Of a DNA stretch of 64,000 nucleotides, positions 803 to 35,536 are shown one piece after another. Under the pieces are notes generated by a model, which worked only from the letters and a program-made list of their open reading frames with translations, did not search any database and had not been told where the DNA came from. The DNA lies in assembly GCA_964603585.1 (NCBI GenBank), contig CAZRVK010000002.1:28282-92281 (forward strand), read 5' to 3'. The position numbers and the translations under genes are program-made. The stretch comes from an uncultured Planctomycetales bacterium. GTDB lineage: Bacteria > Omnitrophota > Gorgyraeia > Gygaellales > Profunditerraquicolaceae. How positions within the stretch are numbered: position 1 is the stretch's first letter; every line of letters begins with the position of its first letter.

Positions 803-2647
803 TTAGGTTTTTTCCTTGAACCGTGTGCGTGAATTTTTAAGCGCAAATAAACCAAGGCACAGACAAATAAACAAGATCATCCCTGAAAAACCCCAAACAA
901 AAGAAGAAGGCAGATAATAAAGAACGATCTTTGTATCGGCGGGGAGAACCCTGACCCCGATCAAACCATGATAACTGAACACCTTCTTCCCGAAAGAATG
1001 CCATCCGGGGAAATAATTCTGATTAACCACCAAAATATCCTCTCGCGCGGCATTTAGATCCAATACAAGCAAATTAGGGGAAAAAATCCTGCAGCCAACC
1101 TGGCCGCTATCTCCGACCAAGTAGTATTCACCCTTATACCCGTTTTCCTGGCGGGGAATGACCTTGCTTTCGATTTGATTGCCGATGCTATCATAGCCGG
1201 ATACTACCCCTTCATTTGCCCGGATGGAATCAAACATGTTTGCATGGTTGCCACGGGTCTGGGAAAAATCATTTTGCGGGCAAACAACCTCCGTCCGGTA
1301 ATTTATCGGCCTGGCATCTATTTTAAAGATCTTATCTGCCGGCAAAAATACGCCGCCTACGACCAGGATCAAGATCCCTGTATACAGAACAACCGCACCT
1401 TGGCGCGAAAGCCTAAGTTTTCTGAATAAATCCTGAACCACCAACCCTAAGATCACCGACCAACAAATCACGAATGGGGCAAAGAACATCTGCGGTTCAC
1501 GGTATGAGCTAAAGAAAAAATGCAATATTCGCCAAAGATTAACCGGGCTATTATCTCCTAAGGCCAGGAAAAAAGATATAATCCCGATTATTAAAATAGA
1601 CAACCTTTCTTTACGCAGTAAAAAAGGGGCTGCCATCAATGCTAAAATTGTGATGAAGGGGAAATTATACCCAAGCATATGTTCATGAGAAAAGAAAACA
1701 TCCACATATAAGTTGTGGCGGGAAAAAAAGAAATGCCCCGATTCCCGTAGAAACGAACTGAATACCTCGGGACTAAGAAAAACCGGCATAGCCGGCAATT
1801 GGATATGGCGCGGTAAAAGCCGCATCAGTTCATACAAAGGTAAAAGCTTAGGCCCGGCAAGAATCAGACAAACACACAACGCCTTTATAAAAAGGATAAC
1901 CGCCCTGTATTTCTTTTCTAAGATAAATCCCCAAAGAGATTCAATGCCTAAAACCATCGTGATTATGATGAAGGCATATACCGAACCGGAATAGACGCAA
2001 TGAGCCAATAAAAACGGTATTGGCCAAAAATAAACTACTTTTTCTTTGGCCTTTTTGAAAAACCAGAGCACCCAGGGTAAAAATGAGATATTTAAGAATG
2101 TAAAGCTCCCAACATAGGCAATGATATTGAATATATTCAACACAAATACCGCACTCAATAAACTAAATGGCCGGCCGGCCCCATAAAGGCGTGATAAGGC
2201 ATATACCCCCAGCATGGCTATAAAGGCCTGTACAAGGTATACAGATATCACTCCTAGGATTGAACCTAAAAAAATAACCGGCAGAAAGAAAAAAGACAGG
2301 AAATCGGACTCTGGATGCGCTAACCACGGCAGGCCGCCACCAATATACGGGTTCCAAAAAGGTAATTGGCAATACTCCAAGACAGCCTTACGCGATAGCT
2401 CATGATAGGTAAAAACCTTGTCCCAATCGGCACGATTAATTGGATGAAAATGACCAAATACTGTAAAAAACCACGCCGCACATACAATACAGAGACAAAG
2501 AACAAAAAAACGGTCATGATCGAATTTCTTCCGTACCAGAAATATTATCTCGTTTAGGCCCTTCATGGATTGCTCTCCAGAGACATGATTACTAACCGGT
2601 ATTTTTGCCTTCGCGCATGAATTCCAGCAATAGGACAATCGCGCCAT
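803..2647 (-). CDS. YfhO-family polytopic membrane protein (GT-C-fold glycosyltransferase-like).
   Basis: More than 10 hydrophobic helices. The C-terminal soluble domain contains NQNYFPGWHSFGKKV...GVRVLPADTKIVLYYLP, resembling the YfhO C-terminal signature. The true start is probably the internal M (MKGLNEII, about 2566), which would avoid overlap with the upstream radical SAM gene. Confidence 0.55.
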   Translation of the reverse strand: MARLSYCWNSCAKAKIPVSNHVSGEQSMKGLNEIIFLVRKKFDHDRFFVLCLCIVCAAWFFTVFGHFHPINRADWDKVFTYHELSRKAVLEYCQLPFWNPYIGGGLPWLAHPESDFLSFFFLPVIFLGSILGVISVYLVQAFIAMLGVYALSRLYGAGRPFSLLSAVFVLNIFNIIAYVGSFTFLNISFLPWVLWFFKKAKEKVVYFWPIPFLLAHCVYSGSVYAFIIITMVLGIESLWGFILEKKYRAVILFIKALCVCLILAGPKLLPLYELMRLLPRHIQLPAMPVFLSPEVFSSFLRESGHFFFSRHNLYVDVFFSHEHMLGYNFPFITILALMAAPFLLRKERLSILIIGIISFFLALGDNSPVNLWRILHFFFSSYREPQMFFAPFVICWSVILGLVVQDLFRKLRLSRQGAVVLYTGILILVVGGVFLPADKIFKIDARPINYRTEVVCPQNDFSQTRGNHANMFDSIRANEGVVSGYDSIGNQIESKVIPRQENGYKGEYYLVGDSGQVGCRIFSPNLLVLDLNAAREDILVVNQNYFPGWHSFGKKVFSYHGLIGVRVLPADTKIVLYYLPSSFVWGFSGMILFICLCLGLFALKNSRTRFKEKT

Positions 2648-4082
2648 GAACTTTGTTAAAAAGCTCTCTAAAGCTCCTGGTCCGCAATAAACTTCTTAAG
2701 ATAAAACCCGGACGCAGGTAAAATAAACGGTATCCGGCATTTACCAATAAAGACAATTCTTTTTCACTGAATAGGTCTGTGCAGATCTGGGGGATATACT
2801 GTTTCTGATACCCAAGCGGGTCTTTTGCGAACTTAAGCCAGAAATCTTCTTTGATCAAACCATTAGCCAAACAATCGCTGTAGAGTTTCGTTTTAGGATA
2901 TGCGGTCAAGAACCCGAATTGCACATAATCCAGATCCAACTCCCGGGCAAATTTAAAGGTATTGTAAATATGCTCCCTGCCCTCTCCCGGAAAACCAATG
3001 ATAAAGCTGCCTACGGCCAGGATCTTGTTTTTCTTGGTCAAAGCGACTGCATTACGGATATCTGCGACACAAACCTCTTTATTTATCTTCTTTAAGAATT
3101 GATCGCTTCCGGTCTCCAAGCCATAATGTATGCGCTCACAACCCGATTTTTTTGCAATACCCAGTAGTTCATCGGTTATCATATTTACCCGGGCACGAAA
3201 ACTCCAGGTAATGGGAAGCCGAGCCTTTAATATCGCAGCAGAGATATCTATCACGCGCTGTGTATTCAGATTAAATAGATCGTCATAAAAAAAGATTTCC
3301 CGTATCCCCAAAGCCGTTATTTGCTGTAACTCCTGTAAAATGTTGCCTGTGCTTCGCGTACGATAAGTCTTTTGGGGAGAATAACAGAATATACATTGGT
3401 ATGGGCATCCCCGACTGGAAATTATAGTCGCGACCACATTTTGGCTGCCCAGGGCACAGCGATATGCATAATTATCGATCATCGAACGGTCAATGACCGG
3501 CAAAGAATCCAGGTCATCAATATACCCCCGGTTTTCATTTATATATACGCTGCCTTTATCCCGGAAACCTATCCCTTTTATTTTATCCAACGCCTTATTC
3601 TCAACCAGATTATTCACCAGCTCAAAGAATGATTGCTCACCTTCCCCTCTAATAATGAAATCTACCGAGGGTTCTTCAAGCACTTGGTGCGGATAACAAT
3701 CGACGTGATGCCCGCCGAGCACGATAACCGCATGGGGATTGACGCTCTTAACCAGCCTGGATGTCAAAACAACATCGATCATTGCCGGAGTAAAAGTGGT
3801 GATTCCGACGATATCAGGCATAAAGGCAATGATCTTCTGCTCCAGTTGGGCATATGTAAGCTTATGGACCGCAGAATCGATAACTTTGACCTCTATCTCG
3901 CCGGGAAAGTTGGTTTTTAGATAGGCGGCAATAGATAATAGGCCTAACGGAGGATACTCCCCGATGGATGCGGTGATCGCCCGGGTTTTCTCCATCCTGA
4001 ACGTATTTTGGCGGGGCGGATTTATCAATAAAACCCTGTTCGCGCCAAGCCCTTTTTTCGGGACAGTCAAATCTTCGCTCAA
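2592..4082 (-). CDS. B12-binding (class B) radical SAM enzyme.
   Basis: N-terminal cobalamin-binding Rossmann-like domain (VLLINPP...PPLGLLSIAAYL...IVLGGHH...IIRGEGE). Followed by SSRGCPYQCIFC (CxxxCxxC). Confidence 0.85.
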   Translation of the reverse strand: MSEDLTVPKKGLGANRVLLINPPRQNTFRMEKTRAITASIGEYPPLGLLSIAAYLKTNFPGEIEVKVIDSAVHKLTYAQLEQKIIAFMPDIVGITTFTPAMIDVVLTSRLVKSVNPHAVIVLGGHHVDCYPHQVLEEPSVDFIIRGEGEQSFFELVNNLVENKALDKIKGIGFRDKGSVYINENRGYIDDLDSLPVIDRSMIDNYAYRCALGSQNVVATIISSRGCPYQCIFCYSPQKTYRTRSTGNILQELQQITALGIREIFFYDDLFNLNTQRVIDISAAILKARLPITWSFRARVNMITDELLGIAKKSGCERIHYGLETGSDQFLKKINKEVCVADIRNAVALTKKNKILAVGSFIIGFPGEGREHIYNTFKFARELDLDYVQFGFLTAYPKTKLYSDCLANGLIKEDFWLKFAKDPLGYQKQYIPQICTDLFSEKELSLLVNAGYRLFYLRPGFILRSLLRTRSFRELFNKVHGAIVLLLEFMREGKNTG

Positions 4083-4086
4083 CGGT

Positions 4087-5787
4087 TTAACCTTTCTTGA
4101 CTATAAAATAAGTGTTGATACCGCCCGATATTATATTCTCGATTTTAACCTGGATCGATGAGGCGCGGCAGAAATCCAGGAATTCAGCCAAAGATAATTC
4201 GTTGTGGGAATATCTCTGTGCACTGAAAATATAGTGATCATGCAGATCATCTTTGATGATTTTCTCTAATATTTCCCGTTTTCTTGCCCCATCCGCAGAA
4301 TAAAAAACCTGGGTGTAATGGATCGGCCGGATCTCGCCTCTTGACAAATACTCGGTTGACCCAATAAAAGCGTATTCAAAAGTAACCGGCTCGCGAATAT
4401 TTCTTTCTCTAAGATACCGGACTAATTCCTGATCCATATCCCCGGGAAAAGAAAATAAATATGGCCGGGCGACTCCAACAGTAACAATTGCGGCATTAAC
4501 AATAACACAGCTGAAGACTACGGTATAAATAATGCGTCTTACCGCAGGTATCGGATAATTATAGGATAATCGGCATAAAACGGCTGCGGATGCTATGAAT
4601 AAAAACGGCAATAAATTGATATAATAGCTTTCATTCCCCGGATAGCTTATTAATGTAATCAGCGCAAGCATTGCGGCCGGAAGGAACAGGAAAAATTTGA
4701 TCTTTTTAAAAGAATGATCTTTTATCCTCATATCTTTGTAGAAAAAAATAAAGATGAGAGCCGTAAAAAGCATAATAAAGGGTTCACTGCTATAAGCCCC
4801 AAGGGCAAAAGAGGTCATAAATCCCAGGTTTTTAGGGATCTTCGCAATAATTTCAGGTAATACTTTAATAAGAGAAGCGTCTGTCGAAGCCCCATCAAGA
4901 AAACGGTTAACCAGGAATAAAACACCCCCGCCAGATCCATCAATGTTATATAAAATCACGGGCAATGCACCCAGCACCAGGAACAATCCCGCAAATAAAA
5001 GCGGCACGGATTTTAATCTAACAGGGATCTTCATGATCAATAAAATCAATACCCAAGCAGAGAGCATAAAGATAACGGTCAGTTTAATATATAACGAAAC
5101 TCCTATGATAAAGAAAAGGAAGAACAATGCCGGCAAACTGCCCTCTTTTTGCCTATACTTATAAGCCAGTAAAAGAATGCCGATTTGCGCCAGCATGATG
5201 TAATTATCGCAAAAGCGTAAATTATTTATATTGCTCAAGAATGGCAGGGATGTCGCCAACAGAAGCACAGAGAGATTCGCTTCATCCAGGCCAAAGACAT
5301 GCCTTGATAATAACCAGGTAGCAACAAGGATCAACAGCCCAACCAGGTATGCATGGACCCTAAGAAAATCAAGATTATACATATCCCTGAACAAAAGCCC
5401 ATGAACATAAAAAGAGAGGTTGCCGCTTCCTCCATTTTTCATGATCGGCAGCCGCAGAGACGGGAATTGCCAAAGATAAGAAACAAAATTCGAATTACAC
5501 ACCGCTGTTTTTAGATTGCCGATCTGTCTTATACTTGCCGAGGAATATTTATCGGGGATGTCTTTATCAAAGATAGCATACCGGGGCTTATCATCTTCTG
5601 CAAACCCGGAAACTATCCTCGGGGAAACCGTCAAAAAAGGAGCTACCTCTTCGCTTATGAAATTATTATGAAAATGAAAATAGATCAGGCAACAAAGTGC
5701 CGCATATAATAAAAGTACCCCGGATAAAAAATACTTGCTTCTAAAAAAGATCCCAAAGGATACAATAGACAAATGAGGTATTTTCAT
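4087..5787 (-). CDS. Large polytopic membrane protein with a cytoplasmic or periplasmic C-terminal domain. Possible GT-C-like glycosyltransferase.
   Basis: About 12 predicted TM helices and a Gly-rich loop (NIDGSGGGV). Its stop/start is coupled to the neighbouring genes. No firm family motif recognised. Confidence 0.4.
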   Translation of the reverse strand: MKIPHLSIVSFGIFFRSKYFLSGVLLLYAALCCLIYFHFHNNFISEEVAPFLTVSPRIVSGFAEDDKPRYAIFDKDIPDKYSSASIRQIGNLKTAVCNSNFVSYLWQFPSLRLPIMKNGGSGNLSFYVHGLLFRDMYNLDFLRVHAYLVGLLILVATWLLSRHVFGLDEANLSVLLLATSLPFLSNINNLRFCDNYIMLAQIGILLLAYKYRQKEGSLPALFFLFFIIGVSLYIKLTVIFMLSAWVLILLIMKIPVRLKSVPLLFAGLFLVLGALPVILYNIDGSGGGVLFLVNRFLDGASTDASLIKVLPEIIAKIPKNLGFMTSFALGAYSSEPFIMLFTALIFIFFYKDMRIKDHSFKKIKFFLFLPAAMLALITLISYPGNESYYINLLPFLFIASAAVLCRLSYNYPIPAVRRIIYTVVFSCVIVNAAIVTVGVARPYLFSFPGDMDQELVRYLRERNIREPVTFEYAFIGSTEYLSRGEIRPIHYTQVFYSADGARKREILEKIIKDDLHDHYIFSAQRYSHNELSLAEFLDFCRASSIQVKIENIISGGINTYFIVKKG

Positions 5788-7325
5788 TTTCGTTGGCTGA
5801 ATGTAAGATGTTTTAAATAATATAATTCCAAACCGCTAAAGGATGTCTCTTTTAAAATAAGTTCCTGGCGGGACAAGTATTCATGCAATGGCTCTGAAAC
5901 CGGGACTACCCCTTCCTGCCAGGAGCCGCAAATCAGCCAGATCCCCTTTATTTTTACTGGTAATTTTGCCAGGTCTGTAATACCGATATGCGAAGTTCGC
6001 GTTATGGCATATAAGGCCTTATCCTGTCCGGAGTAACTTTCCTGGCTATCTACCAAAAAAATGTTTTTATGTAACGGCTCTGGCAGATAATAAAAAATGG
6101 GATAAATCAGGCTTGTATGGCTAACTGCGATAATATCACCCGGACGGTATAGCGTCTTAATAACCGCCGCCAATCCGGCAACCGGCTTTTTAACCACTAC
6201 CCCCACAGACGCAGAGAATTTTTCCTCCAAATAGTAGTTTTTAAGCGAAACGGCGGAAAAAACTGCCAGGATCAGGCAAAAAATAACAAAAACGGCCCTG
6301 TATTTCCTTAAAGATTCCATGCCGTATGCCAAGAGCATGTAGAAAAATACCGAAACTGTAATAAGTGTCCTGCTCATATACACCGGCCGCAACAGCAGCG
6401 AAACAATAAGAGTAAGCAGGCATGGGATCAGAATACAGCAAAATAACCATTTTCCCGCGGCTCGCGCATTATCACGGACAATATTTATAATACTAAACAC
6501 AAGGATCGCGGCGATAAATACCCCCTGGGATAGAGACAAGCCCCGCGTATAATACCCAAAAATAAAATCCTTAAAAACGACAAAAATATCTTTGATCGTT
6601 ATTCCGGGAGACCAAAAATATTCCTGCACGCGGGCAAAATGGTCGAAAAATACTCTACCCCATGGCAAAAATAATATTACAAGAATAAAGTTTGAGATCG
6701 CCCAGGATCTTAACAGTCCTACGGATCTATTTTTCCACAGGATATACAGTACCGCGCAATTTAATCCGGCTAAGAAAAAAAATGATGCGTATTGACAGTA
6801 TAAAGAAAGGGCTCCGGAAACGACATACCCGGCCAGATTTACTTTTTTCCCGGTATGCACCAGGCGAATGGCAAAATACGCGCTAAAAAGCGACAACATA
6901 AGATATAACGAATACATCTTTACTTCTTGCGCATAATAAATTTGAAACCCTGAAATGCTCATAAAAAGCGAGGTCCAAAGAGCAATCCTGCGGCCGCAAA
7001 GATCAACGGCAATTTTATAAGCCAGTAATATAGAGCATAGGCTAAAGATCACCGAGGGGAAACGTACTACCCACTCCGCTTGCCCAAGACCGGACCAGAA
7101 ATGCATAATCAACCTGAATAAGGGGGGATGCACCCCTTCGGCAGCACCACCCAACAAATCCGGGATATCCTTCCTGGATTCAAGCAATAAGAATGCTTCA
7201 TCAAACCAAAGGGATTTTGATCCTAACATGAAGATCCTTAAAGATATAGCCGCTAAAATAATGGCTATGAAATAAGAATTCCCCCTGAATATCCTGGCAG
7301 ATTTATCAATTAAGGTGTTTATCAT
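5784..7325 (-). CDS. GT39/GT83 (ArnT/PMT-like) GT-C-family glycosyltransferase.
   Basis: N-terminal TM helix followed by a first loop carrying SLWFDEAFLL (the DE(A) catalytic-loop motif of ArnT/PMT-type polyprenyl-phosphate-sugar transferases). Then about 11 TM helices and a C-terminal soluble domain. Confidence 0.6.
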   Translation of the reverse strand: MINTLIDKSARIFRGNSYFIAIILAAISLRIFMLGSKSLWFDEAFLLLESRKDIPDLLGGAAEGVHPPLFRLIMHFWSGLGQAEWVVRFPSVIFSLCSILLAYKIAVDLCGRRIALWTSLFMSISGFQIYYAQEVKMYSLYLMLSLFSAYFAIRLVHTGKKVNLAGYVVSGALSLYCQYASFFFLAGLNCAVLYILWKNRSVGLLRSWAISNFILVILFLPWGRVFFDHFARVQEYFWSPGITIKDIFVVFKDFIFGYYTRGLSLSQGVFIAAILVFSIINIVRDNARAAGKWLFCCILIPCLLTLIVSLLLRPVYMSRTLITVSVFFYMLLAYGMESLRKYRAVFVIFCLILAVFSAVSLKNYYLEEKFSASVGVVVKKPVAGLAAVIKTLYRPGDIIAVSHTSLIYPIFYYLPEPLHKNIFLVDSQESYSGQDKALYAITRTSHIGITDLAKLPVKIKGIWLICGSWQEGVVPVSEPLHEYLSRQELILKETSFSGLELYYLKHLTFSQRK

Positions 7326-8745
7326 GTTTTTTCCACAATCTTATCCTCGGCAGGAGCATATTCATCCCCGATCTTATATAATGTAAAAATTGCTTAAAAG
7401 ACTTTATTTTAAAAACTAACCGTACTATTTGTGATAGCCTTAGATAGAAGCCGCGATTAGCCAAAGAAACATATTTGCCGATCACATCCGGGGCAAAAAC
7501 TACTCCTGCGGCCTGCGGCGGAGTTGTCCAATCCTGTTCCTCAATAAACCTGCGCCAATAGTCATCTCCTCCGGAGCGCAAAAATGAATGGTAAAGCTCG
7601 GAATCGGGAAGCATCGTAAACTGGGTAAAGTGGACGAAATCAAGCCCCAACTGCCTGGATAATTCAATATCCTTTAAAATGTCTCCCCGGCCCTGGCCGG
7701 GTAAACCCAGCATAAAGAAACCAAATGCCATTATCCCGGCATTTCTGGTAAACCTGATGACCTCTTTGGTGCGTTCAAAAGAAACCCGGGGCCTGCCTAA
7801 CTGCTCAAGGCAAGGAGAATTAAATGATTCTATTCCATACATGACCATTTTGCAACCACTACCATACATAACTTTAAGCAAATCATTATCGATACAACTA
7901 AGATGCGTCCTTATCCGCCAGGATATATCCAGGCCTTTTTCCTTTATCCCTGCACACAGCCGATAAACCCGCTGTTTATCCGCAGTAAAAATCGAATCGT
8001 AAAAGTCTATCTCCCGGACCCCGAATTCATGATAACACTGGCTGATCTCATCCAGGATATCGTCAGCACTCCTTAAGAATAAATCTCCGGGCAAAGAACA
8101 ATAGCGGCATTTGAACAAACAACCTTGGGATCCGACAATCGAGGTGAAATTCTTTCTTTCCAAAAGTGGCGAATAGTATAATTTATTATTCAGTAACCTT
8201 CTCTCCGGAAAAGGAAGCCGGCTTATATTGGATGAATCTATCGCCGCAGAATTTACGATAATATCGCCATCCCTGCGAAAACACAAGCCGGGGATCTTAT
8301 CAAGCCGGGATTTATCCATAAATGAATCCAGAAAATCCGGAAGCGTCCCTACAGCGTTGCCAATAACCCCATAATCGATCGCCTGATGCTGCATTACCTG
8401 TTTAGGATACAGCTTCATCATAGAGCCGCCCACAATGACAGGTATATCCTGATATTTCTTGATCGCCGTTATCCATTCGAGTACACCGTAAAAAGTAGGG
8501 ATGGTTAGAGTAAAAGCGGTCGCATCGGCTCCGAATTCTTTTATCCTTTCGACTATTTGCTTAAGTTTCCAATTAAGGATATTTGCATCGATAATTACAG
8601 CTTGATGCCCGGAATTATTTATAAGCGCCGCCACATAAGCCAAACTAAGCGGAGGATATCCACTCATATTCTCAAGATAACCTTGCGGCCTGAAAGTACT
8701 GTCGTAATATTGAGTGATCCTGGGATATATTAGAGCTATTCTCAT
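7306..8745 (-). CDS. B12-binding (class B) radical SAM enzyme.
   Basis: IALIYPR...PPLSLAYVAAL...VIVGG (B12 domain). GSQGCLFKCRYC (CxxxCxxC). Confidence 0.85.
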   Translation of the reverse strand: MRIALIYPRITQYYDSTFRPQGYLENMSGYPPLSLAYVAALINNSGHQAVIIDANILNWKLKQIVERIKEFGADATAFTLTIPTFYGVLEWITAIKKYQDIPVIVGGSMMKLYPKQVMQHQAIDYGVIGNAVGTLPDFLDSFMDKSRLDKIPGLCFRRDGDIIVNSAAIDSSNISRLPFPERRLLNNKLYYSPLLERKNFTSIVGSQGCLFKCRYCSLPGDLFLRSADDILDEISQCYHEFGVREIDFYDSIFTADKQRVYRLCAGIKEKGLDISWRIRTHLSCIDNDLLKVMYGSGCKMVMYGIESFNSPCLEQLGRPRVSFERTKEVIRFTRNAGIMAFGFFMLGLPGQGRGDILKDIELSRQLGLDFVHFTQFTMLPDSELYHSFLRSGGDDYWRRFIEEQDWTTPPQAAGVVFAPDVIGKYVSLANRGFYLRLSQIVRLVFKIKSFKQFLHYIRSGMNMLLPRIRLWKKHDKHLN

Positions 8746-10208: not shown

Positions 10209-10964
10209 TTATTTGCTTATGAGCTGATTATTGATCATCGCTTCTTTAAGTTCAAGCACTTCGACAAAAGACCCGCGGTATCTATTCATTAATGTCTTTT
10301 CCTCTGGTTTTCTGTATTCTATATGCGTAAATGGAATAAAGGTGTGTACCATTTTTACAAATCCGACTCCTTGGGCGATCCAAAAGTCATACGTATGCAT
10401 ATGTTTACTGACTCCTTTAAGATCACGATAAGTATGTCTTACAAAAAAATGAAGGCACAAGAAATCCCCTGCCGCAGACTGCACCATCTCTTTGCCCAGA
10501 TAGGTTATCCCCGCTTCCACAGCCTCTTTATCCAGGAGATTGCCCTGATAATCATATATTGATTGCACCGAAAAAGAAAACTGGTTTGGGTTCATTTGTG
10601 ATGGCAGCATAAGCAGCGGGGGCGAAAATCTCCGGATGACCTTATGCGGCACCTGACCTGTCAGCTGCTGGTTCTGAAAGAACAATATCCCTGCGGGTGT
10701 ACGCACATTGGTCATCAAGCGGTCATGGTATTTACCCCGCCACAAAAAATCAAACTGCCGGCCAAGATTTCCGTCGAAAACATTTTGGACAGTAATCGAG
10801 ACAATATCTGACTCTGCATCTTCGTGGTAGAGATAGACATACTTGTCTCCTTCGTTAAGAGGGAAATACTTTATAATATCATAGGAATCCTTCCATTTCG
10901 CCAGGAAATATATGCCGAATAAAATAACCACAAACAACATGGCCGCAACACGCTTATTCTTCAT
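10209..10964 (-). CDS. Hypothetical membrane-anchored protein with an N-terminal TM helix/signal anchor. Function unknown.
   Basis: N-terminus MKNKRVAAMLFVVILFGIYFLA is hydrophobic. No recognisable domain. Embedded in the radical SAM/GT-C cluster. Confidence 0.45.
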   Translation of the reverse strand: MKNKRVAAMLFVVILFGIYFLAKWKDSYDIIKYFPLNEGDKYVYLYHEDAESDIVSITVQNVFDGNLGRQFDFLWRGKYHDRLMTNVRTPAGILFFQNQQLTGQVPHKVIRRFSPPLLMLPSQMNPNQFSFSVQSIYDYQGNLLDKEAVEAGITYLGKEMVQSAAGDFLCLHFFVRHTYRDLKGVSKHMHTYDFWIAQGVGFVKMVHTFIPFTHIEYRKPEEKTLMNRYRGSFVEVLELKEAMINNQLISK

Positions 10965-28161: not shown

Positions 28162-29622
28162 ATGATCGACATCCTTTTAGTTCAACAATCCGCCGGCAGC
28201 TGGGAACGTCCAATCAAAAATCACATTTTGCCGCTCTCGCTTATCTCTGCGACAAGGCAAATCCCTAAGGATTTTAACATTAAACTGATAGATGTCAGGA
28301 TCCATGGCAAAAAAGCGCTCTTGCCCTATATCCGACAAAAGAATATCCTGATCGGCTTATCTGTTCTGACCGGACAATCGATCAAAAATGCTCTGGGAAT
28401 AATCCGATTTATAAAAGAGATCAACCCTTCCGCCCAAATAATCTTAGGGGGGATTCATCCAACTATTCAGCCGGAACAAACCTTAGCTTCTCCACTGGTT
28501 GATTACATCGTTACCGGACCTGGAGAAACTGCTTTAAAAGAGTTTTTAATACACAGGAGCGGGCCAAGGATAAGCAATCCGGACAACATCGAAGGCCTTG
28601 GATATAAAGACAGCGGTAAATTATTCATTAACCAGCCGTCGAAGTTGACTCCAGAAAAAATCGATTCCTTCGGTCTTCCCTCGTACGATCTCGTAGATAT
28701 CAAGCAATACCTGATTGATTATGACGGAAAACCAAGCATCCAAATAGAAAGCTCGCGCGGCTGTAATCAAAGATGTGCATTTTGTGTAAATTCCGCGCTA
28801 CGGCAAAATTGGGTTCCGTATTCCGCTGATTTCGTAATTAAGCACATTGAACACCTTTACTATACTTATGGCGTTAAAAGCTTCATTTTTATCGATTGGG
28901 ATTTCTTCACCGATTTAGAAAGGGCAAGACAAATTTGCCTGCAATTGATACAAAAGAAAATCGGGATCTCCTGGGTCTCTCAAGGGATTCATGTTAACGA
29001 ATTACTAAAGATCGATGATAAATTCATGAGATTACTTAAAGAAAGCGGATTTGTCGAATTCTGCGCTATAGGAGTCGAAAGCGGTTCAAAAAGGATCTTA
29101 AAAACAATGAATAAGGGGTATAATATGGAGGAACTTATTTCATTAAATAAGAACCTTTCCCGTTACAGAATTGCCCTAAAATACACCTTCATCATAGGTA
29201 CACCTTACGAACAATACAAAGATCTCCAGGAAACTATATCTTTAGCCCTGAAACTAAATTCAGATAATCCTTATGCGGCCAACTCCAGCTTCTATATTTA
29301 CACCCCCTATCCCGGGACAAAATTCTTTGATCAAGCGGTTAATTTGGGGTTTAACCCACCCTCAACACTGGAAGAATGGGGAGATGTCAGGGGCTGGATA
29401 ACTTCGTGGCAGCGCAACCGAGGGCCAAGGAGCAAGCTCGAAAAGATCCATTTTCTATCGTTGTTCACCACAGCAGTCTATTGGCAAAAATATCTTAAAC
29501 GTTTCAAACTGCTCAAGCCCGTTTTTCTTATATATAGTAAAATCGCCGTATTTAGATTAAAAAAAGGGTTTTTTCCCTTCATGCCGGAGTTCTTAATCTG
29601 GAAACAGCTAAGAAGGAATTAA
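28162..29622 (+). CDS. B12-binding (class B) radical SAM enzyme. Tandem paralogue 1 on the plus strand.
   Basis: ILLVQQSAGSWERP...IILGGIHPT...IVTGPGE. SSRGCNQRCAFC. Highly similar to the next ORF. Confidence 0.85.
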   Translation: MIDILLVQQSAGSWERPIKNHILPLSLISATRQIPKDFNIKLIDVRIHGKKALLPYIRQKNILIGLSVLTGQSIKNALGIIRFIKEINPSAQIILGGIHPTIQPEQTLASPLVDYIVTGPGETALKEFLIHRSGPRISNPDNIEGLGYKDSGKLFINQPSKLTPEKIDSFGLPSYDLVDIKQYLIDYDGKPSIQIESSRGCNQRCAFCVNSALRQNWVPYSADFVIKHIEHLYYTYGVKSFIFIDWDFFTDLERARQICLQLIQKKIGISWVSQGIHVNELLKIDDKFMRLLKESGFVEFCAIGVESGSKRILKTMNKGYNMEELISLNKNLSRYRIALKYTFIIGTPYEQYKDLQETISLALKLNSDNPYAANSSFYIYTPYPGTKFFDQAVNLGFNPPSTLEEWGDVRGWITSWQRNRGPRSKLEKIHFLSLFTTAVYWQKYLKRFKLLKPVFLIYSKIAVFRLKKGFFPFMPEFLIWKQLRRN

Positions 29623-29682: not shown

Positions 29683-31143
29683 ATGCTTAGCGCCTTATTG
29701 GTTCAACAGTCTTCCGGCAGCTGGGAAAAAGCCGTGTCTTCACCCACATTGCCTTTATCTTTGATTTCTGCCGCAAGACAAATCCCTAAAGAATACAAAA
29801 TCAAATTATTCGACGCCAGGATAGAAGATGAAAAAGATATCCTTGTGCATCTTAAACAGCCCGGGCTTCTTCTTGCCTTCTCGGTCCTTACCGGAGCCTC
29901 GATCAAAAATATGCTTTCGTTTGTTAAAAAAGCAAAAGCCATTAACCATAGCCTGAAAATACTTTTAGGCGGCATACATCCATCGATATTACCGGAACAG
30001 ACACTCGCTTGCCCTTTGGTGGATTATATCATTACCGGCCCGGGAGAATTACCATTAAAAGAATTGATCATCCAACGGAGTAAAAATACCGGCTTCAACC
30101 CGCGGGGGATCCCCGGTCTCGGGTTCAAAGAAGAAAACCGGATAATAATCAACCCCAAAAAACATCCAGATGCAAAAGAGATCAACAGCTGGGATCTTCC
30201 AAATTACAAGTTAGTAGAAATCAGAAAATACCTGTTCGATTACAACGGCAAACCTACTATCTATATCGAAAGTTCACGCGGCTGTAACCACACCTGTTCA
30301 TTCTGTTCAAATGTGCCTCTGCATAACAGATGGGTACCCTATCTTCCTGAACGGGTAGTAGCACATATACGCTATCTCTATGAAAATTACGGCATAAAAA
30401 GTTTTTTATTCATTGATTTGGATTTCTTCACTGATCTGGAGCGCGCCAGGCGGATTTGCGAGCTTATCATCAAAGAAAAACTCGGTATTTCCTGGCATAC
30501 CCAGGGAGTACGCGTCGCCGAACTGATGCAGATGAAAGAAGATTTTATCAATCTTTTAAAAGAAAGCGGATTCAGGGAATTCGAGGCGATCGGCGTAGAA
30601 AGCGGGTCTCAACACCTGATCAATCTGATAAAAAAAGGATTTAATGTTGCAGATCTGCCAAAACTCAATGCGTCTTTTATGAATTTCGCTATCCCTATGC
30701 GGTATAATTTTATGATCGGCTTCCCTAATGAAACATACGAAGACACAAAGCAAACCATAGACATGGCACTAACCTTGAACAGGCAAAATCCCCACGCCTC
30801 AAATTCGATGTTTTATATTTACACCCCTTACCCCGGGACAGAATTCTATCGCCAGGCAATTGAATTGGGATTTAAAGCCCCTGACAATCTCCAGGAGTGG
30901 GGAAATATCCAGGGATGGATAACTTCTCCGATACATGGGAGAAAAATACAGGATAGATTGGAAAGGATACATTTCTTGTCGATTTTCACCACAATGACAT
31001 ATTGGAGCAAATTCTTCAGGCGCTATCATATATTGTGGTTATTCTTTGCTGTCTATAGATATATCGCCCTCTTCAGGCTTAATAAGAAATTCTTCCGCTT
31101 AATGCCTGAATTCCTGATCTGGAAATTCATCCGAATGCGTTAA
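29683..31143 (+). CDS. B12-binding (class B) radical SAM enzyme. Tandem paralogue 2 on the plus strand.
   Basis: ALLVQQSSGSWEKA...ILLGGIHPS...IITGPGE. SSRGCNHTCSFC. Collinear similarity with 28162-29622 over the full length (for example YIYTPYPGT, ERIHFLS, MPEFLIWK). Confidence 0.85.
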   Translation: MLSALLVQQSSGSWEKAVSSPTLPLSLISAARQIPKEYKIKLFDARIEDEKDILVHLKQPGLLLAFSVLTGASIKNMLSFVKKAKAINHSLKILLGGIHPSILPEQTLACPLVDYIITGPGELPLKELIIQRSKNTGFNPRGIPGLGFKEENRIIINPKKHPDAKEINSWDLPNYKLVEIRKYLFDYNGKPTIYIESSRGCNHTCSFCSNVPLHNRWVPYLPERVVAHIRYLYENYGIKSFLFIDLDFFTDLERARRICELIIKEKLGISWHTQGVRVAELMQMKEDFINLLKESGFREFEAIGVESGSQHLINLIKKGFNVADLPKLNASFMNFAIPMRYNFMIGFPNETYEDTKQTIDMALTLNRQNPHASNSMFYIYTPYPGTEFYRQAIELGFKAPDNLQEWGNIQGWITSPIHGRKIQDRLERIHFLSIFTTMTYWSKFFRRYHILWLFFAVYRYIALFRLNKKFFRLMPEFLIWKFIRMR

Positions 31144-32708
31144 AAATCATCTTGCCTTATACGCACGATCCCGGCATAACTTGAAATATAAAAATACCCG
31201 TTATCCGCACAGATCGCTTCGGGAGACTGTCCGATATAATACGATCTTTCCAACTTACGGGAAGCCCTTGATAAGATATAACAATACCCGTCATTATAAC
31301 TGAAGAACACGACCTTTTGGTTATTCAAGGCATAAACCTGTCTCGCTCCAATAGGGGCCGCATAGGTATTAATTATCCCTAAATCGGGCAGCGAGAGTTC
31401 CCAAAGCCTTGTATCGCTTACTGCCGATATCAAAAGGCTGTTATGAAAGCCATCGTAGGCAAAAGAAGCTCCCTGTGATGGAAGACGGACTTTTTTAGTG
31501 ATCATAAACCGCTGCGGATCCAGTTCAAAAAGCGAGTCTTTTGCAGGAAACAGCAAAAAATAAAGCTTGCCGGTAGCGGGGATATATTGCGCCTTCCAGA
31601 TATCCCCGACATTTCCGGAAGATTCACTTTTTAAATCGATAATGCCAAGGATATTATCATTTGAAATGCTGTATTTAACTATTTTTTTTGAACGATTAAA
31701 GAAAAAAATCAGGATGTCATTCCCGTCGAAATAGAAGGTTATTAATTCTTCCTCATTCTTAAATAACCGGTTAAATTCAATTGCAAATAACTGTTTGAGG
31801 CTGTCTTTATCCACAACCTGGATCTTGGCCGGAAGCCATATCCCAATGAATATCCGGCTATTTTGATTATCGATCCTAAATGCCCTCACCCCCGATACAG
31901 GAATTGCTTTGATCTCTCGCGTCAGCAAATCTACCCTTAAAAAAGAAGGTGGATTAGTGATTTGCTGGATATCGGAAGCATACGAAACATAGGCAGAATT
32001 TCCCGAAACAACCAGATCTCGCGGCCTGGGCCAGAATCCGAATAATTTCCACCCCCACCCCTGTTTTATAAGATCATTTTCCCTTGCCCAATCTTTTATC
32101 TGGGTTAAAGGAAAAACTACTTCTACCTCTTTCTGCGCGTAAATCTTCTTGAGAGAAAACTCATTTTCTCCCGCCGCATAATAGCCAAAAACAACCAAAA
32201 CGGCAATAGATAGCGGCAGTAAAACCGTGATCGTAAAGCGCAAGATCTTTTTTCTCACCACAAAAAACGAATAAAACAAAATGTACAAACATATCATTGA
32301 TAAGGATAGCTTATAATGCACCCAAAAAAATGGTTTAAGGTATGCCGATAGGGTACTCAAGGCATATTCTGCCCCCTGGATCAACCCTGAATATTTGGGG
32401 AATAAAATGGTTGCTTCCTCACTGCGCGGGATATTTATGACAAGAAAAAAAAGAAAGACTAATATTACCGCTTTAACTAAGACTTGCAAATAGAATTTAA
32501 GGACTCCGGATTGCTTTTTGTCATAGTATTTGCTCATCAGGAATTCAAAGCAGATAAGAAGCGCTGGGAAAATGATTATTTGCAATAATGACAGCCTTGT
32601 CCTGCTGGAATATTCAAGGATAAGAAAAAGGCAGGATATGACCAAGACTCCGATAAAGAAAGGGAAAAAGATCCTGGCTGCCTGGCAGCAAAAACGGCAT
32701 AATTTCAT
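31140..32708 (-). CDS. Membrane-anchored protein. About 5 N-terminal TM helices plus a C-terminal, probably beta-rich (propeller-like), domain. Unknown function.
   Basis: N-terminal hydrophobic segments. The C-terminal roughly 330 aa is hydrophilic with repeated aromatic/Gly segments. No family motif recognised. Confidence 0.4.
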   Translation of the reverse strand: MKLCRFCCQAARIFFPFFIGVLVISCLFLILEYSSRTRLSLLQIIIFPALLICFEFLMSKYYDKKQSGVLKFYLQVLVKAVILVFLFFLVINIPRSEEATILFPKYSGLIQGAEYALSTLSAYLKPFFWVHYKLSLSMICLYILFYSFFVVRKKILRFTITVLLPLSIAVLVVFGYYAAGENEFSLKKIYAQKEVEVVFPLTQIKDWARENDLIKQGWGWKLFGFWPRPRDLVVSGNSAYVSYASDIQQITNPPSFLRVDLLTREIKAIPVSGVRAFRIDNQNSRIFIGIWLPAKIQVVDKDSLKQLFAIEFNRLFKNEEELITFYFDGNDILIFFFNRSKKIVKYSISNDNILGIIDLKSESSGNVGDIWKAQYIPATGKLYFLLFPAKDSLFELDPQRFMITKKVRLPSQGASFAYDGFHNSLLISAVSDTRLWELSLPDLGIINTYAAPIGARQVYALNNQKVVFFSYNDGYCYILSRASRKLERSYYIGQSPEAICADNGYFYISSYAGIVRIRQDDF

Positions 32709-32736: not shown

Positions 32737-34305
32737 TCACGAATCGTACCATTGAGGTTTTTTCATATGCATGAAGGCCGTTACCCCTTCAAATTTCTTC
32801 CGCCTGAAGAGCGTATCGGTTATCTCGACAAACATCATCCTTGCGGTATTTACAAAAAACCACCAATATAAATTGCGTTTATGTTTGTGGGGAGAAAATA
32901 ATCCCCGAACCAGCCAATGAGGACGGTAAAGAACATAACGTTTATTTAACTCCATATTCAATTTAGCAAATTCGTCGCGCGAAATACCAGAGGTAGAACG
33001 CATGGTAGGAGTAGCCCAATCATAATTCTTAAAATCGGTTTCCTCCAGCAAGCCTTTTTCCTTTGCCTCTTGATATAAATAAGTCCCGGGTACGGGTGCT
33101 ACAGGATGGAAGGCAGGATAATCGATATCGATCTCTCTGGCATAGTCAACCAGGCTCAACATGGACTTTCGGGTATCAAACGGCAAACAGGTCACGAATG
33201 TCCCCTGCCTGAACACATGCGGATATTTTTTCTTAAAGATCATAAAAACTTCTTTTACCATTTCCCGAGTGTAAACTGATTTCTTGATCTTTCGCAGATC
33301 TTCTGTGCAGCCACGCTCCACCCCGATCAATGGATGCACTAAACCGGCTTTGACCATTTTTCCTAAAACCCCAAGCCGTTCATCCCTTAGCACAAAATCA
33401 GCCCGCAGAAAAGCCCACCAAAACAGGTCTTTATAATTGCGCTTAATGAGCTTTTCGCAGAAATCTTCCGTCCATTTACTATCCACATTAAAAGTAGGAT
33501 CAGCCCAAATAAGATACCTGCGATTATACTTATTATAAAGGATATCCACCTCTTCAAGCGTTCTTTCAACACTCTTTGTCCGATACTCCGGGTTAACCTC
33601 CAATCGGCCTTTCTCGATATTTGTATCGGTCTGCCTGCCCCAAAAAGTCCAGAGAGAACAAAAATTACACCGATCAATACAACCACGTGAATGCTCTATG
33701 GTAGCGCTCTGCGGCCAAAGGTAGCCAAAAGGCGCGTATTTACCCATTGGCATAAGATCATAAGCTGGCATCGGTAAAGAATCGAGGTCTTTTATTAAAG
33801 GCCTTATCGCGGTCTTAATGATCTTGCCGCCGTTTTTATATGCGATGCCTTGGACGTTTAAAAGGTCTGTATTATCAATTAAAGCCCGGATTAAATCTAC
33901 AACTGTCTGGTCTCCCTCAAATCTTACAATAATATCGATTGGGTATTGGGCAAAACTGTAATCCGTCATCCAGGAGAAGAAATGCCCTCCAGCCATGGTA
34001 ATCACTTTGGGATTCAACTCTTTTGCCAGCTCAAATAACTTAACCGCCTCATGATGATAAAGTGCCTCTTCTCCGGCTCCGACAATATCCGGATTCTCTT
34101 TTTGGAGGATTCCCTTCAAACTACTCCAACCGATCTTCAGAGGAGGACAGTCGATAATCTTAACTTCGACCCCGGGGACTTTTTCTCTGATAGCTGCCGC
34201 AATAGAAGGTAATCCTAAAGGCAAAAGAAAGTTATCGGATTCATTGATAAACGGCCATAAATACCTGGGGGGACGCACCAAAACCACTTTTTTAAGAGTT
34301 TTCAT
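32737..34305 (-). CDS. B12-binding (class B) radical SAM enzyme.
   Basis: HSRGCIDRCNFC. VVLVRPPRY...PLGLPSIAAAI...TMAGGHF...IVRFEGD. I placed the start at the internal MKTLKKVVLVRPP (34305). The track ORF start (34359) would overlap the upstream GT9 gene by 47 nt. Confidence 0.8.
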   Translation of the reverse strand: MKTLKKVVLVRPPRYLWPFINESDNFLLPLGLPSIAAAIREKVPGVEVKIIDCPPLKIGWSSLKGILQKENPDIVGAGEEALYHHEAVKLFELAKELNPKVITMAGGHFFSWMTDYSFAQYPIDIIVRFEGDQTVVDLIRALIDNTDLLNVQGIAYKNGGKIIKTAIRPLIKDLDSLPMPAYDLMPMGKYAPFGYLWPQSATIEHSRGCIDRCNFCSLWTFWGRQTDTNIEKGRLEVNPEYRTKSVERTLEEVDILYNKYNRRYLIWADPTFNVDSKWTEDFCEKLIKRNYKDLFWWAFLRADFVLRDERLGVLGKMVKAGLVHPLIGVERGCTEDLRKIKKSVYTREMVKEVFMIFKKKYPHVFRQGTFVTCLPFDTRKSMLSLVDYAREIDIDYPAFHPVAPVPGTYLYQEAKEKGLLEETDFKNYDWATPTMRSTSGISRDEFAKLNMELNKRYVLYRPHWLVRGLFSPHKHKRNLYWWFFVNTARMMFVEITDTLFRRKKFEGVTAFMHMKKPQWYDS

Positions 34306-34312: not shown

Positions 34313-35536
34313 TTATCCTGCAGTTCGGAAACAAACGGTTTGAAGTTGTGAATATACATCTTCTGGTTTAATAAACTTCAAGCATTTATTATCCCGGCAG
34401 GCCGATTCCCGGTGATTGAATGCCGAAAAACACGGTGCACAGGGAATTCCTGAATAGAAGATCCTGGTATTCCCGGATAAAGGCGCGTACACCTGTGGAC
34501 TTTCCGGGCCGAAAATAATAAATTCCTTTACCCGCGTTAATGCAGCCAAATGGGCAAGCCCGCAATCATTAGAGATAAACGCATGCGCCATGGTTAAAAG
34601 GGCCAACACTTCTTCTAATTTCGTGGCGTTAACCAGATTAATGCACCGGGCATCATTCAAACGGCACTGTATCTGATTTGCCTTGGACAAAGAACCCTGC
34701 ATACCCACAAGCACCAAATAGTTATGTTTATCAAGCAAAATATTCTCTGCCAACGAAATAAAGTTATTTAAAGGCCAGACCCGAAGAGGGATATTTTCCT
34801 CCCCGGGATTCATTAAGACAAGCCTGGACCCAGAGCTAAATCCCGCAGATAACAACATCTCCTGCATCTTTTTTTTTATCTCTTCCGGAGGATAATACTG
34901 CGGCAAAACCAACTCCTCATCTTCGATCTTACGATTAAATTCAGGGGAAGATTTATCTTCTTCTTTGACAGCATCCCAGAACGAGATAAACGATTTACTG
35001 ATATGCAATAAAGGATTATATTGTACTTTATGGGTCAATAGATCCCCTCTATATAAGCCTTCGCTACAATAACGCCAGAAACCCACTCTTTTTACTGCAC
35101 CGCTTAGATACGCAAGAATGGCGGTGAATCTGGAGAATAATTCAAGATCCAAGGCAATATCTATCCTCTCCCTGCGTAATCTACGGATAACCCGCAAAAG
35201 ATCAAGAACGAACACGCCCAAGCTGTCTTCTCTGATAGTCAACACTTCTATGGCCGGGCTAAGATTAAGAGCGCTAAAAACTTCCTGATTCTTTCGAAAA
35301 GTCAAAAAAAATATCCTTGCCCCAGGATAGGCATTTTGCACCCGATAAATAAGCGGGTAAGTCAAAATAATACTCCCCATTTCAGATAATTTGATAAAGA
35401 GCACTTTATTAAAACTACCGCCGGTGACTTTGCGGTGGAAATTTAATAAACAAAATAAATAACGTAAACCCGTGATAAAGAAACAAAACGGGATACCAAG
35501 CCAATAATCTAATTGTCGCATAAATGCGTTGGGCAT
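34313..35536 (-). CDS. Glycosyltransferase family 9 (ADP-heptose:LPS heptosyltransferase-like).
   Basis: C-terminal LVLMNPGEEN...VNATKLEEVLALLTMAHAFISNDCGLAHLAALTRVKEFIIFGPESPQVYAP matches the GT9 signature (NDSGxMHLAAAxG...FGPT). Carries an N-terminal hydrophobic extension. Confidence 0.7.
   Translation of the reverse strand: MPNAFMRQLDYWLGIPFCFFITGLRYLFCLLNFHRKVTGGSFNKVLFIKLSEMGSIILTYPLIYRVQNAYPGARIFFLTFRKNQEVFSALNLSPAIEVLTIREDSLGVFVLDLLRVIRRLRRERIDIALDLELFSRFTAILAYLSGAVKRVGFWRYCSEGLYRGDLLTHKVQYNPLLHISKSFISFWDAVKEEDKSSPEFNRKIEDEELVLPQYYPPEEIKKKMQEMLLSAGFSSGSRLVLMNPGEENIPLRVWPLNNFISLAENILLDKHNYLVLVGMQGSLSKANQIQCRLNDARCINLVNATKLEEVLALLTMAHAFISNDCGLAHLAALTRVKEFIIFGPESPQVYAPLSGNTRIFYSGIPCAPCFSAFNHRESACRDNKCLKFIKPEDVYSQLQTVCFRTAG

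Follow-up and report, generated by a model that had tools for sequence, protein, structure and literature searches.

What is made by a gene cluster in which twelve radical S-adenosylmethionine (SAM) enzymes are encoded together with U32 proteins and polytopic membrane proteins? The question is raised by a 64,000-nucleotide (nt) stretch of contig CAZRVK010000002.1 (assembly GCA_964603585.1; Omnitrophota), referred to here as the window, of which the cluster occupies about 36 kb (1-35536). An original prediction, made from the letters of this DNA, had described eleven open reading frames (ORFs) between 2592 and 34359 as an eleven-fold expansion of cobalamin-type (class-B) radical SAM genes, named R1 to R11 here, which would modify a single scaffold in the manner of the polytheonamide or gentamicin pathways. 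The present analysis suggests that the likely product of the cluster is a single peptide or glycopeptide, extensively modified by oxygen-independent chemistry, and that its substrate is most likely a 27-residue ribosomal peptide encoded at 652-735. It is this conserved peptide-centred system, and not the count of eleven, that is the point of interest of the locus.

The candidate peptide and its SPASM enzyme

The genes for the candidate peptide and for a radical SAM/SPASM enzyme resembling peptide maturases lie at the left edge of the window, outside the range 2592-34359 (see Table 1 for the features of the cluster). The enzyme, read on the minus strand from 578, is a twelfth radical SAM protein, so that the earlier count holds for the class-B members and falls short for the full tally. 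SPASM orthologues (37-56% identical) were found at four related loci, L093, L094, L014 and L019, and at each of the five loci, the window included, a small ORF ending in CR(S/C)GRVLW lies directly upstream of the enzyme gene, this C-terminus being invariant in 5/5. The related peptides are MSIRKINKVMRITRKLSRYCRSGRVLW (L093), VVRLLNRRKSTRKYRAAFCRCGRVLW (L094), ...RRRRKLSYPSAFCRCGRVLW (L014) and MVRLLNKKKRGRRTYRAAFCRCGRVLW (L019). In a DNA alignment of the peptide genes, the codons for the invariant C, R, G, R, V and L vary synonymously only, which argues that the ORF is translated and constrained. A hairpin 3' of the peptide gene, as listed for the window, is also present in L094. The gaps of 2592-34359 have room for no further co-directional small ORF, the peptide matches no NCBIfam family model, and its motif was not found in the literature searched. 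The conservation of the peptide gene and its linkage to the enzymes are regarded as established, as are the domain architectures and the paralogy and orthology relations given below.

In three of the five loci (L093, L094 and L014) the peptide gene heads an operon that includes an R11 orthologue, with short gaps or overlapping genes. The gene order is peptide, SPASM, R11 orthologue, U32, a gene of unknown function, chorismate mutase and U32 in L093; peptide, SPASM, R11, two class-B genes, a further radical SAM gene, deacetylase, DUF2079, U32, R7-like, U32, R7 and X2 in L094, which joins locus L008 on one contig; and peptide, SPASM, R11 and R7 in L014. The order in L019 is R7, a U32a-like gene, peptide and SPASM. 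Since the linkage is seen in all five loci, the peptide/maturase pair appears functionally tied to the class-B/U32 core. The single scaffold that had been postulated thereby gains support and a candidate, namely the conserved 27-residue peptide associated with the SPASM enzyme and the R11/R7/U32 core.

The SPASM enzyme reaches no defined maturase family cut-off in NCBIfam, where its best matches are PapB (224 bits, cut-off 340) and the SCIFF maturase (182 bits, cut-off 425), with nif11-type and QhpD maturases also among them and likewise under cut-off; its best solved relative is CteB (5wgg, 136 bits). The arrangement is close in outline to the ranthipeptide/SCIFF systems (CteA-CteB, PapA-PapB), with which it shares a short Cys-containing precursor gene directly upstream of the SPASM enzyme, an N-terminal extension of about 95 residues on that enzyme, and CteB and PapB as best matches. 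It differs from them in scores that stay under all family cut-offs, in having one or two core Cys instead of many, in the invariant CR(S/C)GRVLW at the extreme C-terminus, and in the company of up to eleven class-B enzymes, U32 proteins and membrane proteins resembling C-type glycosyltransferases (GT-C). Mycofactocin (MftA-F, MftM) also involves a small peptide with a conserved C-terminus and a SPASM enzyme with a peptide-recognition part, has a conserved and not strain-specific distribution, and is a peptide-derived product that is later glycosylated and methylated (PMC7491314). However, no MftB, MftD or MftE homologue was detected here, mycofactocin is glycosylated by a cytoplasmic GT2 enzyme whereas GT-C and GT9 proteins are the candidates in the present cluster, and its synthesis proceeds without class-B or U32 enzymes.

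Eleven class-B radical SAM enzymes and their age

All eleven ORFs were found at exactly the coordinates originally given, and their domain content identifies them as genuine class-B radical SAM enzymes. The layout claimed for every copy was borne out, both Pfam domains being above gathering threshold in 11/11 ORFs, with PF02310 (B12-binding) at 40.7-82.8 bits (cut-off 32.1) and PF04055 (Radical_SAM) at 45.3-84 bits (cut-off 29.5). The three cluster cysteines, whose conservation had been put forward as a check, form invariant columns in the eleven-way alignment. The motif strings said to be shared hold as a family-level layout, but none is literally present in every copy: [IV]LL[IV]NP and [VI][RT]GEGE each occur in 2/11 copies, PLG[LIV] and [VI][LF]GG.H each in 4/11, and [ST]SRGC...C..C in 6/11. 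The spacing of the cluster motif is CX3CX2C in ten copies, the exception being R4 with CX4CX2C (CPHSKCRFC), a spacing also found in its 57% identical orthologue of L090, a locus of another organism. The start of R11 is probably at 34305 and not at 34359, because its orthologues are 519-522 amino acids (aa) long.

A profile built from the eleven proteins and compared with solved structures retrieved AprD4, OxsB, MgmA (9ccb), TsrM, CysS and TokK. An AlphaFold model of R11 (predicted local distance difference test 83.5, predicted template-modelling score 0.86) aligned to the same six structures with template-modelling scores of 0.60-0.66, which confirmed the class and gave no clue to the substrate. 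Together with HpnJ and BchE, these characterised class-B enzymes share domain order and fold with the window proteins, whereas identity in the structure alignments is 14-19%. Use of cobalamin in catalysis is not revealed by any sequence motif, and AprD4, which is the nearest of the solved relatives, is not known to use it. The best partial NCBIfam matches of the eleven are HpnJ and BchE, the best HpnJ score being 219 bits against a cut-off of 578 and HpnR reaching at most 98 against 650. The cluster contains no hopanoid, chlorophyll or aminoglycoside partner genes.

The eleven genes are old. In an all-vs-all comparison, every pair is 19-32% identical except R9/R10, which at 54% is indeed the most similar pair, as had been claimed. 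For eight of them or more, the nearest relative belongs to another organism and not to the window, with best identities elsewhere of 83% for R11, 61% for R7, 57% for R4, 54% for R8, 55-59% for R9 and R10, and 43-44% for R2 and R3; within the loci sampled, the best relatives of R1, R5 and R6 are only 33-35% identical. The set is therefore one of old, separately conserved subfamilies and not of a recent expansion, and an amplification within the locus did not hold up.

The same applies to the plus-strand pair R9/R10, which had been taken for a very recent tandem duplication inside a locally inverted segment. The two genes are 58% identical at the DNA level, with an identity of 0.41 at four-fold degenerate sites, synonymous sites near saturation and a longest exact shared run of 14 nt. 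The suggested check for gene conversion revealed no conversion tract, and no 30-codon window exceeded a nucleotide identity of 0.73. R10 is nearer to protein P0129 of L090 (58-59%) than to R9 (54%), and a bootstrapped distance tree, though poorly resolved in other respects, does not group the two as sisters. Moreover, in L090, whose proteins are only 32-83% identical to those of the window, the plus-strand block is likewise found between R8 and X4 and likewise holds two copies in tandem, and because this layout is kept there, the opposite-strand pair is an old, conserved feature and not a fresh inversion. On these comparisons, a recent duplication within a local inversion is refuted. Of the original description, the genes, their domains and the closest pair thus stand, whereas the literal motif strings, the recency and the inversion do not. 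A further array was noted in L042 (JADDYB010000005.1, about 8000-21146), where nine tandem class-B radical SAM genes with different partners occupy 21 kb, and long class-B arrays are therefore not unique to the window.

The proposed affiliation with the polytheonamide or gentamicin pathways was not supported. Like the proteusin polytheonamide (PoyB/PoyC), to which the original prediction drew the analogy, the cluster may employ class-B C-methyltransferases on unactivated carbons of a ribosomal peptide. The candidate precursor has only 27 aa, without an NHLP/Nif11-type long leader (nitrile-hydratase-like or Nif11); the PoyD-type epimerase, dehydratase and N-methyltransferase set was not found, no epimerase-like or dehydratase gene being present among the ORFs scanned with Pfam and NCBIfam; and many distinct paralogues take the place of two iterative enzymes. 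As for gentamicin, aminoglycoside core genes are missing, no 2-deoxy-scyllo-inosose synthase and no aminocyclitol aminotransferases or dehydrogenases being found among window ORFs of at least 100 aa by the same models. The neighbours are instead GT-C-like, U32 and GT9 genes.

Conserved partners, proposed pathway and alternatives

Related loci were collected around orthologues of R7 and R11, reading flanks of up to 10 kb. R7 has more than 2500 homologues, with orthologues that are 46-61% identical and mostly named Omnitrophota, and R11 has more than 120 clusters at 63-83% identity, whose named sources are almost always Candidatus Omnitrophota/Omnitrophica. Judged by these orthologues, versions of the cluster are found repeatedly in uncultured bacteria, most of which carry the name Omnitrophota. 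The window proteins themselves are singletons at 90% identity and also occur in the Logan runs SRR15237810 and SRR15237811. A scan of a genome collection with R7 alone returned relatives of at most 31% identity and no synteny. In L090 (R7 61%, U32a 72%, R11 83% and GT9 58% identical), the layout is DUF2079-R7-U32a-U32b-R8, followed by the opposite-strand block with its two R9/R10-type genes and by X4-R11-GT9. More generally, the R7/R11 loci recurrently hold U32 paralogues (up to five), a G2-type PMT_2 protein, DUF2079 and X2, as well as additional radical SAM genes of the class-B and SPASM types, all of which vary in order and number. A Pfam census of 62 unmatched neighbour ORFs returned mainly radical SAM, TPR, GDSL, SPASM and PMT_2 domains. 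A link to the anammox S-layer glycan was also considered and rejected, since the Kuenenia S-layer paper mentions no radical SAM cluster and the homologues point to Omnitrophota and not to anammox bacteria.

Other genes were seen in a few related loci. L007 (17287-20270) and L008 (13182-16201) encode a multi-ferredoxin-domain protein, an HGD-D (2-hydroxyacyl-CoA dehydratase-like) protein and a BcrAD/BadFG-type activase, which could be a source of low-potential electrons or serve a dehydration step; none of these was seen in the window. L009 (1-3185) carries a Dlt-like acylation set, made up of an MBOAT protein, a carrier protein and a fusion of radical SAM and AMP-binding parts, and also encodes large GDSL/TPR proteins.

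The two adjacent U32 proteins, U32a and U32b, are divergent. Their PF01136 matches, though above cut-off, span profile positions 2-67 only (66/233), and they score 28 bits against NCBIfam equivalog cut-offs above 400. The U32a subfamily keeps the cysteines C170, C180, C184 and C216, as well as 344/349/352/355 in a C-terminal CX4CX2CX2C. It is a distinct subfamily of modest size: of 1.84 billion representatives searched, 438 clusters match at E<=1e-30 and no more than 1672 at E<=0.001. With UbiU-UbiV, TrhP and RlhA it has in common a partial match to the U32 domain and sets of conserved cysteines (for Fe-S cysteines of U32 enzymes, PMC6747719), and the pair of adjacent paralogues recalls the UbiU-UbiV heterodimer, whereas the spacing C-x9-C-x3-C-x31-C and the extra C-terminal motif set it apart. 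U32 hydroxylases use prephenate as oxygen donor (PMC10990095, PMC6747719). A gene for a 95-aa type-II chorismate mutase (CM_2) lies between the U32 genes of L093 (13454-13741), beside the R11 orthologue, which fits prephenate-dependent hydroxylation and hints that the U32 proteins of that locus use prephenate; no chorismate mutase homologue was found in the window or in the other loci.

About eight polytopic membrane proteins are encoded in the cluster, of which six are GT-C-like. G1, G2 and G3 are above the PMT_2 cut-off, and G4 and X3 are joined to them by paralogy; DUF2079 is presumably a member of the GT-C clan of Pfam. Profile comparison of X1, X4 and DUF2079 with the PMT_2 group gave no signal, the alignments being shallow, and X1 and X4 have no detectable relation to GT-C proteins of the PMT/ArnT type. 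The GT-C-like proteins resemble ArnT/PMT-type enzymes in being polytopic, in their PMT_2 matches and in an acidic motif after the first membrane segment, but six such paralogues stand in one locus, next to which the window has no genes for donor synthesis.

The notion of one pathway served by many radical SAM enzymes is supported. We tentatively read the cluster as an anaerobic hyper-modification pathway resembling those for peptides that are made by the ribosome and modified after translation (RiPPs), possibly including glycosylation, with the 27-residue peptide as substrate, and give this reading somewhat less than even confidence. Every chemical step, and the role of the peptide as class-B substrate, we infer from gene context. 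The peptide would be produced in excess from its own promoter, and the N-terminal domain of the SPASM enzyme would bind its basic leader, with a thioether linking the invariant Cys to another residue. The class-B enzymes would then abstract hydrogen from unactivated carbons of the invariant core (Y/F)CR(S/C)GRVLW and transfer a methyl group from methylcobalamin, or perform other radical chemistry, probably at one site per enzyme. The U32a/U32b pair may subsequently hydroxylate the product without O2, prephenate being the oxygen donor, and the GT-C-like membrane proteins and GT9 may finally glycosylate, attach or export it at the envelope. A bolder version, in which a phylum-wide Omnitrophota pathway converts one 27-residue peptide by oxygen-independent thioether formation, multiple C-methylations by a dozen radical SAM enzymes and prephenate-dependent U32 hydroxylation, followed by GT-C glycosylation or anchoring, into a new peptide-derived cofactor or envelope component, must be considered doubtful. 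The kinds of components (class-B and SPASM radical SAM enzymes, U32 proteins, GT-C proteins) are known, whereas the peptide family, the U32 subfamily and the combination of U32, B12 and GT-C genes have no description in the literature searched.

Omnitrophota are widespread, uncultured and mostly ultra-small anaerobes whose cell biology is hardly known. Read as one pathway, the cluster devotes some 36 kb and twelve radical SAM enzymes to one conserved product, and the retention of R11 at 63-83% identity across more than 120 clusters suggests that this product matters to its hosts. With the peptide as substrate, the system would represent a new RiPP-like family with site-specific enzymes for anaerobic C-H methylation and hydroxylation, and would imply a strong cobalamin demand in small-genome organisms. 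The pathway would also give the first hint of prephenate-dependent U32 hydroxylases beyond quinone and RNA modification, and would for the first time connect such hydroxylases with class-B radical SAM chemistry and with GT-C enzymes in the maturation of a peptide.

Several observations weigh against the peptide as substrate, a proposal that draws on gene neighbourhood throughout. The comparative set is a small sample of about twenty informative loci, anchored on R7 and R11, and most of these loci have no peptide gene within the 10-kb flanks, L095 being an example with R11 and without the peptide. The peptide gene of the window is 30 kb distant from R11 and is equipped with a separate promoter. 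None of the eleven class-B proteins passes any NCBIfam family cut-off, the RiPP methylase families included, and the best partial matches point elsewhere, HpnJ, BchE and AprD4 acting on a lipid-linked sugar, a porphyrin and an aminoglycoside, respectively. Typical RiPP parts such as a leader peptidase or an ABC exporter were not found in the cluster, and we know of no role of GT-C enzymes in RiPP pathways. Finally, the related loci contain sugar genes (GT2, GT4, GT9, polysaccharide deacetylase, carbamoyltransferase, Acyl_transf_3, GDSL and a polyprenyl-phosphate sugar-phosphate transferase family), which fit a glycan substrate at least equally well.

A somewhat unlikely alternative is that the cluster tailors an envelope glycan or glycolipid. 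The class-B and U32 enzymes would remodel sugars or a lipid-linked intermediate in the cytoplasm by C-methylation, deoxygenation, ring contraction or hydroxylation, GT9 and the GT-C-like proteins would build these onto the lipopolysaccharide core, a glycolipid or a surface protein, and the peptide/SPASM pair would be separate or accessory. This would account for six GT-C-like proteins and GT9 being interleaved with radical SAM genes, for the acidic WFDE of G2, for the sugar genes of related loci, to which Glycos_transf_4 and the MBOAT protein with its carrier protein can be added, for the sugar-acting HpnJ and AprD4 among the closest sequence and structure matches, and for the envelope genes nearby (lipid A acyltransferase, PIG-L, Lnt and LptE). 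It leaves unexplained, however, why the peptide gene and its maturase lie within or head the same operons in 5/5 loci, and neither a polyprenyl-phosphate sugar synthase nor a flippase was found in the window cluster. No glycan locus with a dozen radical SAM enzymes turned up in the literature searched, and to our knowledge none has been described; with a glycan as substrate, the cluster would be the most radical-SAM-rich envelope locus described. A glycopeptide product would reconcile the peptide and glycan readings.

It is improbable that the cluster serves no single pathway and that unrelated anaerobic tailoring functions have accumulated in a variable envelope or secondary-metabolism island. 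Gene order and content do differ strongly among related loci, the window cluster interrupts a carotenoid gene set, and long class-B arrays with different partners exist elsewhere, such as the nine genes of L042. Against this, R7, R11, U32, the G2-type GT-C protein, DUF2079, X2 and the peptide/SPASM pair recur jointly in loci whose proteins are only 40-80% identical, and the cluster is tightly packed, with gaps of -56 to 125 nt across 35 kb.

A role in isoprenoid tailoring, in which the flanking genes would supply a carotenoid, quinone or polyprenyl lipid for modification by the cluster, is very improbable. Isoprenoid genes do lie on both flanks, L095 has UbiA directly upstream of its radical SAM gene R11, and UbiU/UbiV-type U32 proteins hydroxylate a prenylated ring (PMC6747719). 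Yet no CrtB-like or CrtI-like relative was found in 80 metagenome loci, in L007-L009 or in L090, and the last of these, the closest syntenic relative, carries other genes beyond GT9; the UbiA protein is UBIAD1/MenA-like only, and none of the eleven class-B proteins reaches the hopanoid methylase or HpnJ cut-offs.

The notion of a lineage-specific eleven-fold amplification with a recent tandem duplicate, an inversion and a polytheonamide/gentamicin-like function draws on the common architecture of all copies, on R9/R10 as the most similar pair and on the presence of several class-B enzymes per locus, which is the pattern of those two pathways, but it can hardly be upheld in view of the low identities within the set, the closer relatives elsewhere, the near-saturated synonymous sites without a conversion tract, the conserved plus-strand block of L090, the separate positions of R9 and R10 in the tree and the missing leader, epimerase, dehydratase and aminoglycoside core genes. 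What survives of the original interpretation is the architecture, the single pathway and the single scaffold; the amplification, its recency and the named pathways do not.

Layout of the cluster and remaining genes of the window

The minus strand is packed from 35536 to 803, the order from 35536 being GT9, R11, X4, the plus-strand pair R10 and R9, R8, U32b, U32a, R7, DUF2079, a SAM methyltransferase, R6, R5, G4, R4, G3, X3, X2, R3, R2, G2, G1, R1 and X1. X1 has no Pfam or NCBIfam match and X4 no family match in either collection. A faint DUF3108_like match is confined to the L008 orthologue of X2, the L007 orthologue having no Pfam match. GT9 scores 93 bits against the NCBIfam model of Heptosyltransferase II (cut-off 134.6). 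Rfam and tRNA scans of the window found nothing, and promoter-like and terminator-like sites in 26400-36000 were no more numerous than in shuffled sequence.

Table 1. Features of the radical SAM cluster, in order of position in the window.
Feature	Position	Strand	Evidence and relatives
Radical SAM/SPASM peptide-maturase-like enzyme (twelfth radical SAM), N-terminal 192 of 499 aa	1..578	-	Remainder past window edge; full gene in L091:11989-13488
Terminator-/attenuator-like hairpin, 11-bp stem + U6, between peptide and SPASM genes	586..625	-	-21.9 kcal/mol, z -4.6 vs shuffles
Candidate precursor peptide, MKAKKINKDTKSKKKLSRYCRSGRVLW (27 aa + stop)	652..735	-	Ribosome-binding site AAAGGAGG 5-6 nt ahead of ATG; homologous small ORFs upstream of SPASM orthologues
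Promoter-like TTGACA-17-TAAAAT, with TG, ahead of peptide gene	762..790	-	11/12 matches, near-consensus
X1, polytopic membrane protein, ~11 segments	803..2566	-	45% orthologue in L008; probable start at 2566, as in gene call
R1, class-B radical SAM	2592..4082	-	PF02310 74.4 bits, PF04055 84 bits; CPYQCIFC at residue 226; best NCBIfam HpnJ 219 bits vs 578
G1, PMT_2 (GT-C-type) polytopic membrane protein	4087..5787	-	PF13231 31.3 bits; ~9 hydrophobic segments
G2, PMT_2 GT-C-type membrane protein, WFDE after first membrane segment	5784..7325	-	PF13231 46.6 bits; relatives in 8 related loci
R2, class-B radical SAM	7306..8745	-	Pfam domains; relatives 42-43% in L015, L026, L092
R3, class-B radical SAM	8750..10180	-	Pfam domains; relative 44% in L016
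X2, signal-anchored protein, relatives annotated DUF3108-like	10209..10964	-	51-53% orthologues in L007, L008 beside R7/DUF2079
X3, GT-C-type paralogue of G3, G4	11090..12778	-	BLASTP E 3e-71 to G4; hhalign probability 100%
G3, PMT_2 GT-C-type membrane protein	12768..14402	-	PF13231 30 bits
R4, class-B radical SAM, CX4CX2C	14413..15768	-	Pfam domains; 57% orthologue in L090
G4, PMT-like GT-C-type membrane protein	15814..17502	-	PMT 19.3 bits, under cut-off; paralogous to G3, E 6e-56
R5, class-B radical SAM	17542..18954	-	Pfam domains
R6, class-B radical SAM	18970..20391	-	Pfam domains
Class-I SAM-dependent methyltransferase	20370..21047	-	Methyltransf_11/25/12 domains
DUF2079 polytopic membrane protein, conserved member	21087..22631	-	PF09852 77.6 bits; 39-43% orthologues in L007, L008, L010, L090
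R7, class-B radical SAM, core member of conserved system	22639..24123	-	Pfam domains; adjoins U32 genes in related loci
U32a, divergent U32 Fe-S protein, candidate O2-independent hydroxylase subunit	24143..25321	-	PF01136 42.8 bits; 72% orthologue in L090
U32b, U32a paralogue (47%)	25338..26531	-	PF01136 43.5 bits; conserved cysteines as in U32a
R8, class-B radical SAM	26636..28081	-	Pfam domains; 54% orthologue, syntenic position in L090
R9, class-B radical SAM, first of plus-strand pair	28162..29622	+	Pfam domains; 54% to R10, 53-55% to P0128-P0130 (other organisms)
R10, class-B radical SAM, second of plus-strand pair	29683..31143	+	Pfam domains; 58-59% to P0129 of L090
X4, N-terminal membrane segments + C-terminal domain of no known family	31140..32708	-	32% orthologue, syntenic in L090
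R11, class-B radical SAM, most conserved member	32737..34305	-	Pfam domains; ORF extends to 34359, likely start M19 at 34305
GT9 (heptosyltransferase-family) glycosyltransferase, first gene of minus-strand array	34313..35536	-	PF01075 75.1 bits; 58% orthologue beside R11 in L090

The cluster stands in the middle of a set of carotenoid-type genes, an adjacency not found in the related loci. The right flank (35676-38820) encodes a CrtB-like synthase, IspH and a CrtI-family desaturase (409.6 bits, above cut-off), and the left flank (L091:13592-18221) two small proteins with a lycopene-cyclase domain, a TPR protein, a polyprenyl diphosphate synthase, a UBIAD1/MenA-like UbiA prenyltransferase and an FAD oxidoreductase. 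The synthase is ambiguous, with 244 bits for CrtB and 240 for HpnD, both under cut-off. A hopanoid reading of these neighbours was rejected, as the desaturase scores just 46 bits for HpnE and the lycopene-cyclase-domain genes stand on the other side, and so was UbiA as a polyprenyl-phosphoribose synthase feeding the GT-C proteins, its only solved relative being UBIAD1 and its best family MenA.

The right half of the window consists of ordinary diderm housekeeping genes, indicating that the cluster is chromosomal; those of 45623-61054 include lipid A acyltransferase, PIG-L deacetylase, Lnt, SecA, a PilT-like ATPase, UvrC, MurJ, LptE and a TPR lipoprotein resembling BamD. The gene for release factor 2 (53083-54190, minus strand) has a classical programmed +1 frameshift site at 54119-54124 (TAT CTT TGA T after AGAGG), which explains why its listed ORF lacks the N-terminus. 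At 61142-62879 lie three overlapping genes, one for a ThiF-type E1-like protein, one for an unassigned 156-aa protein and one of the Prok-E2_E type; the first of these proteins weakly matches the E1 part of the PADLOC E1-E2 models, and the three genes may form a prokaryotic ubiquitin-like conjugation module.

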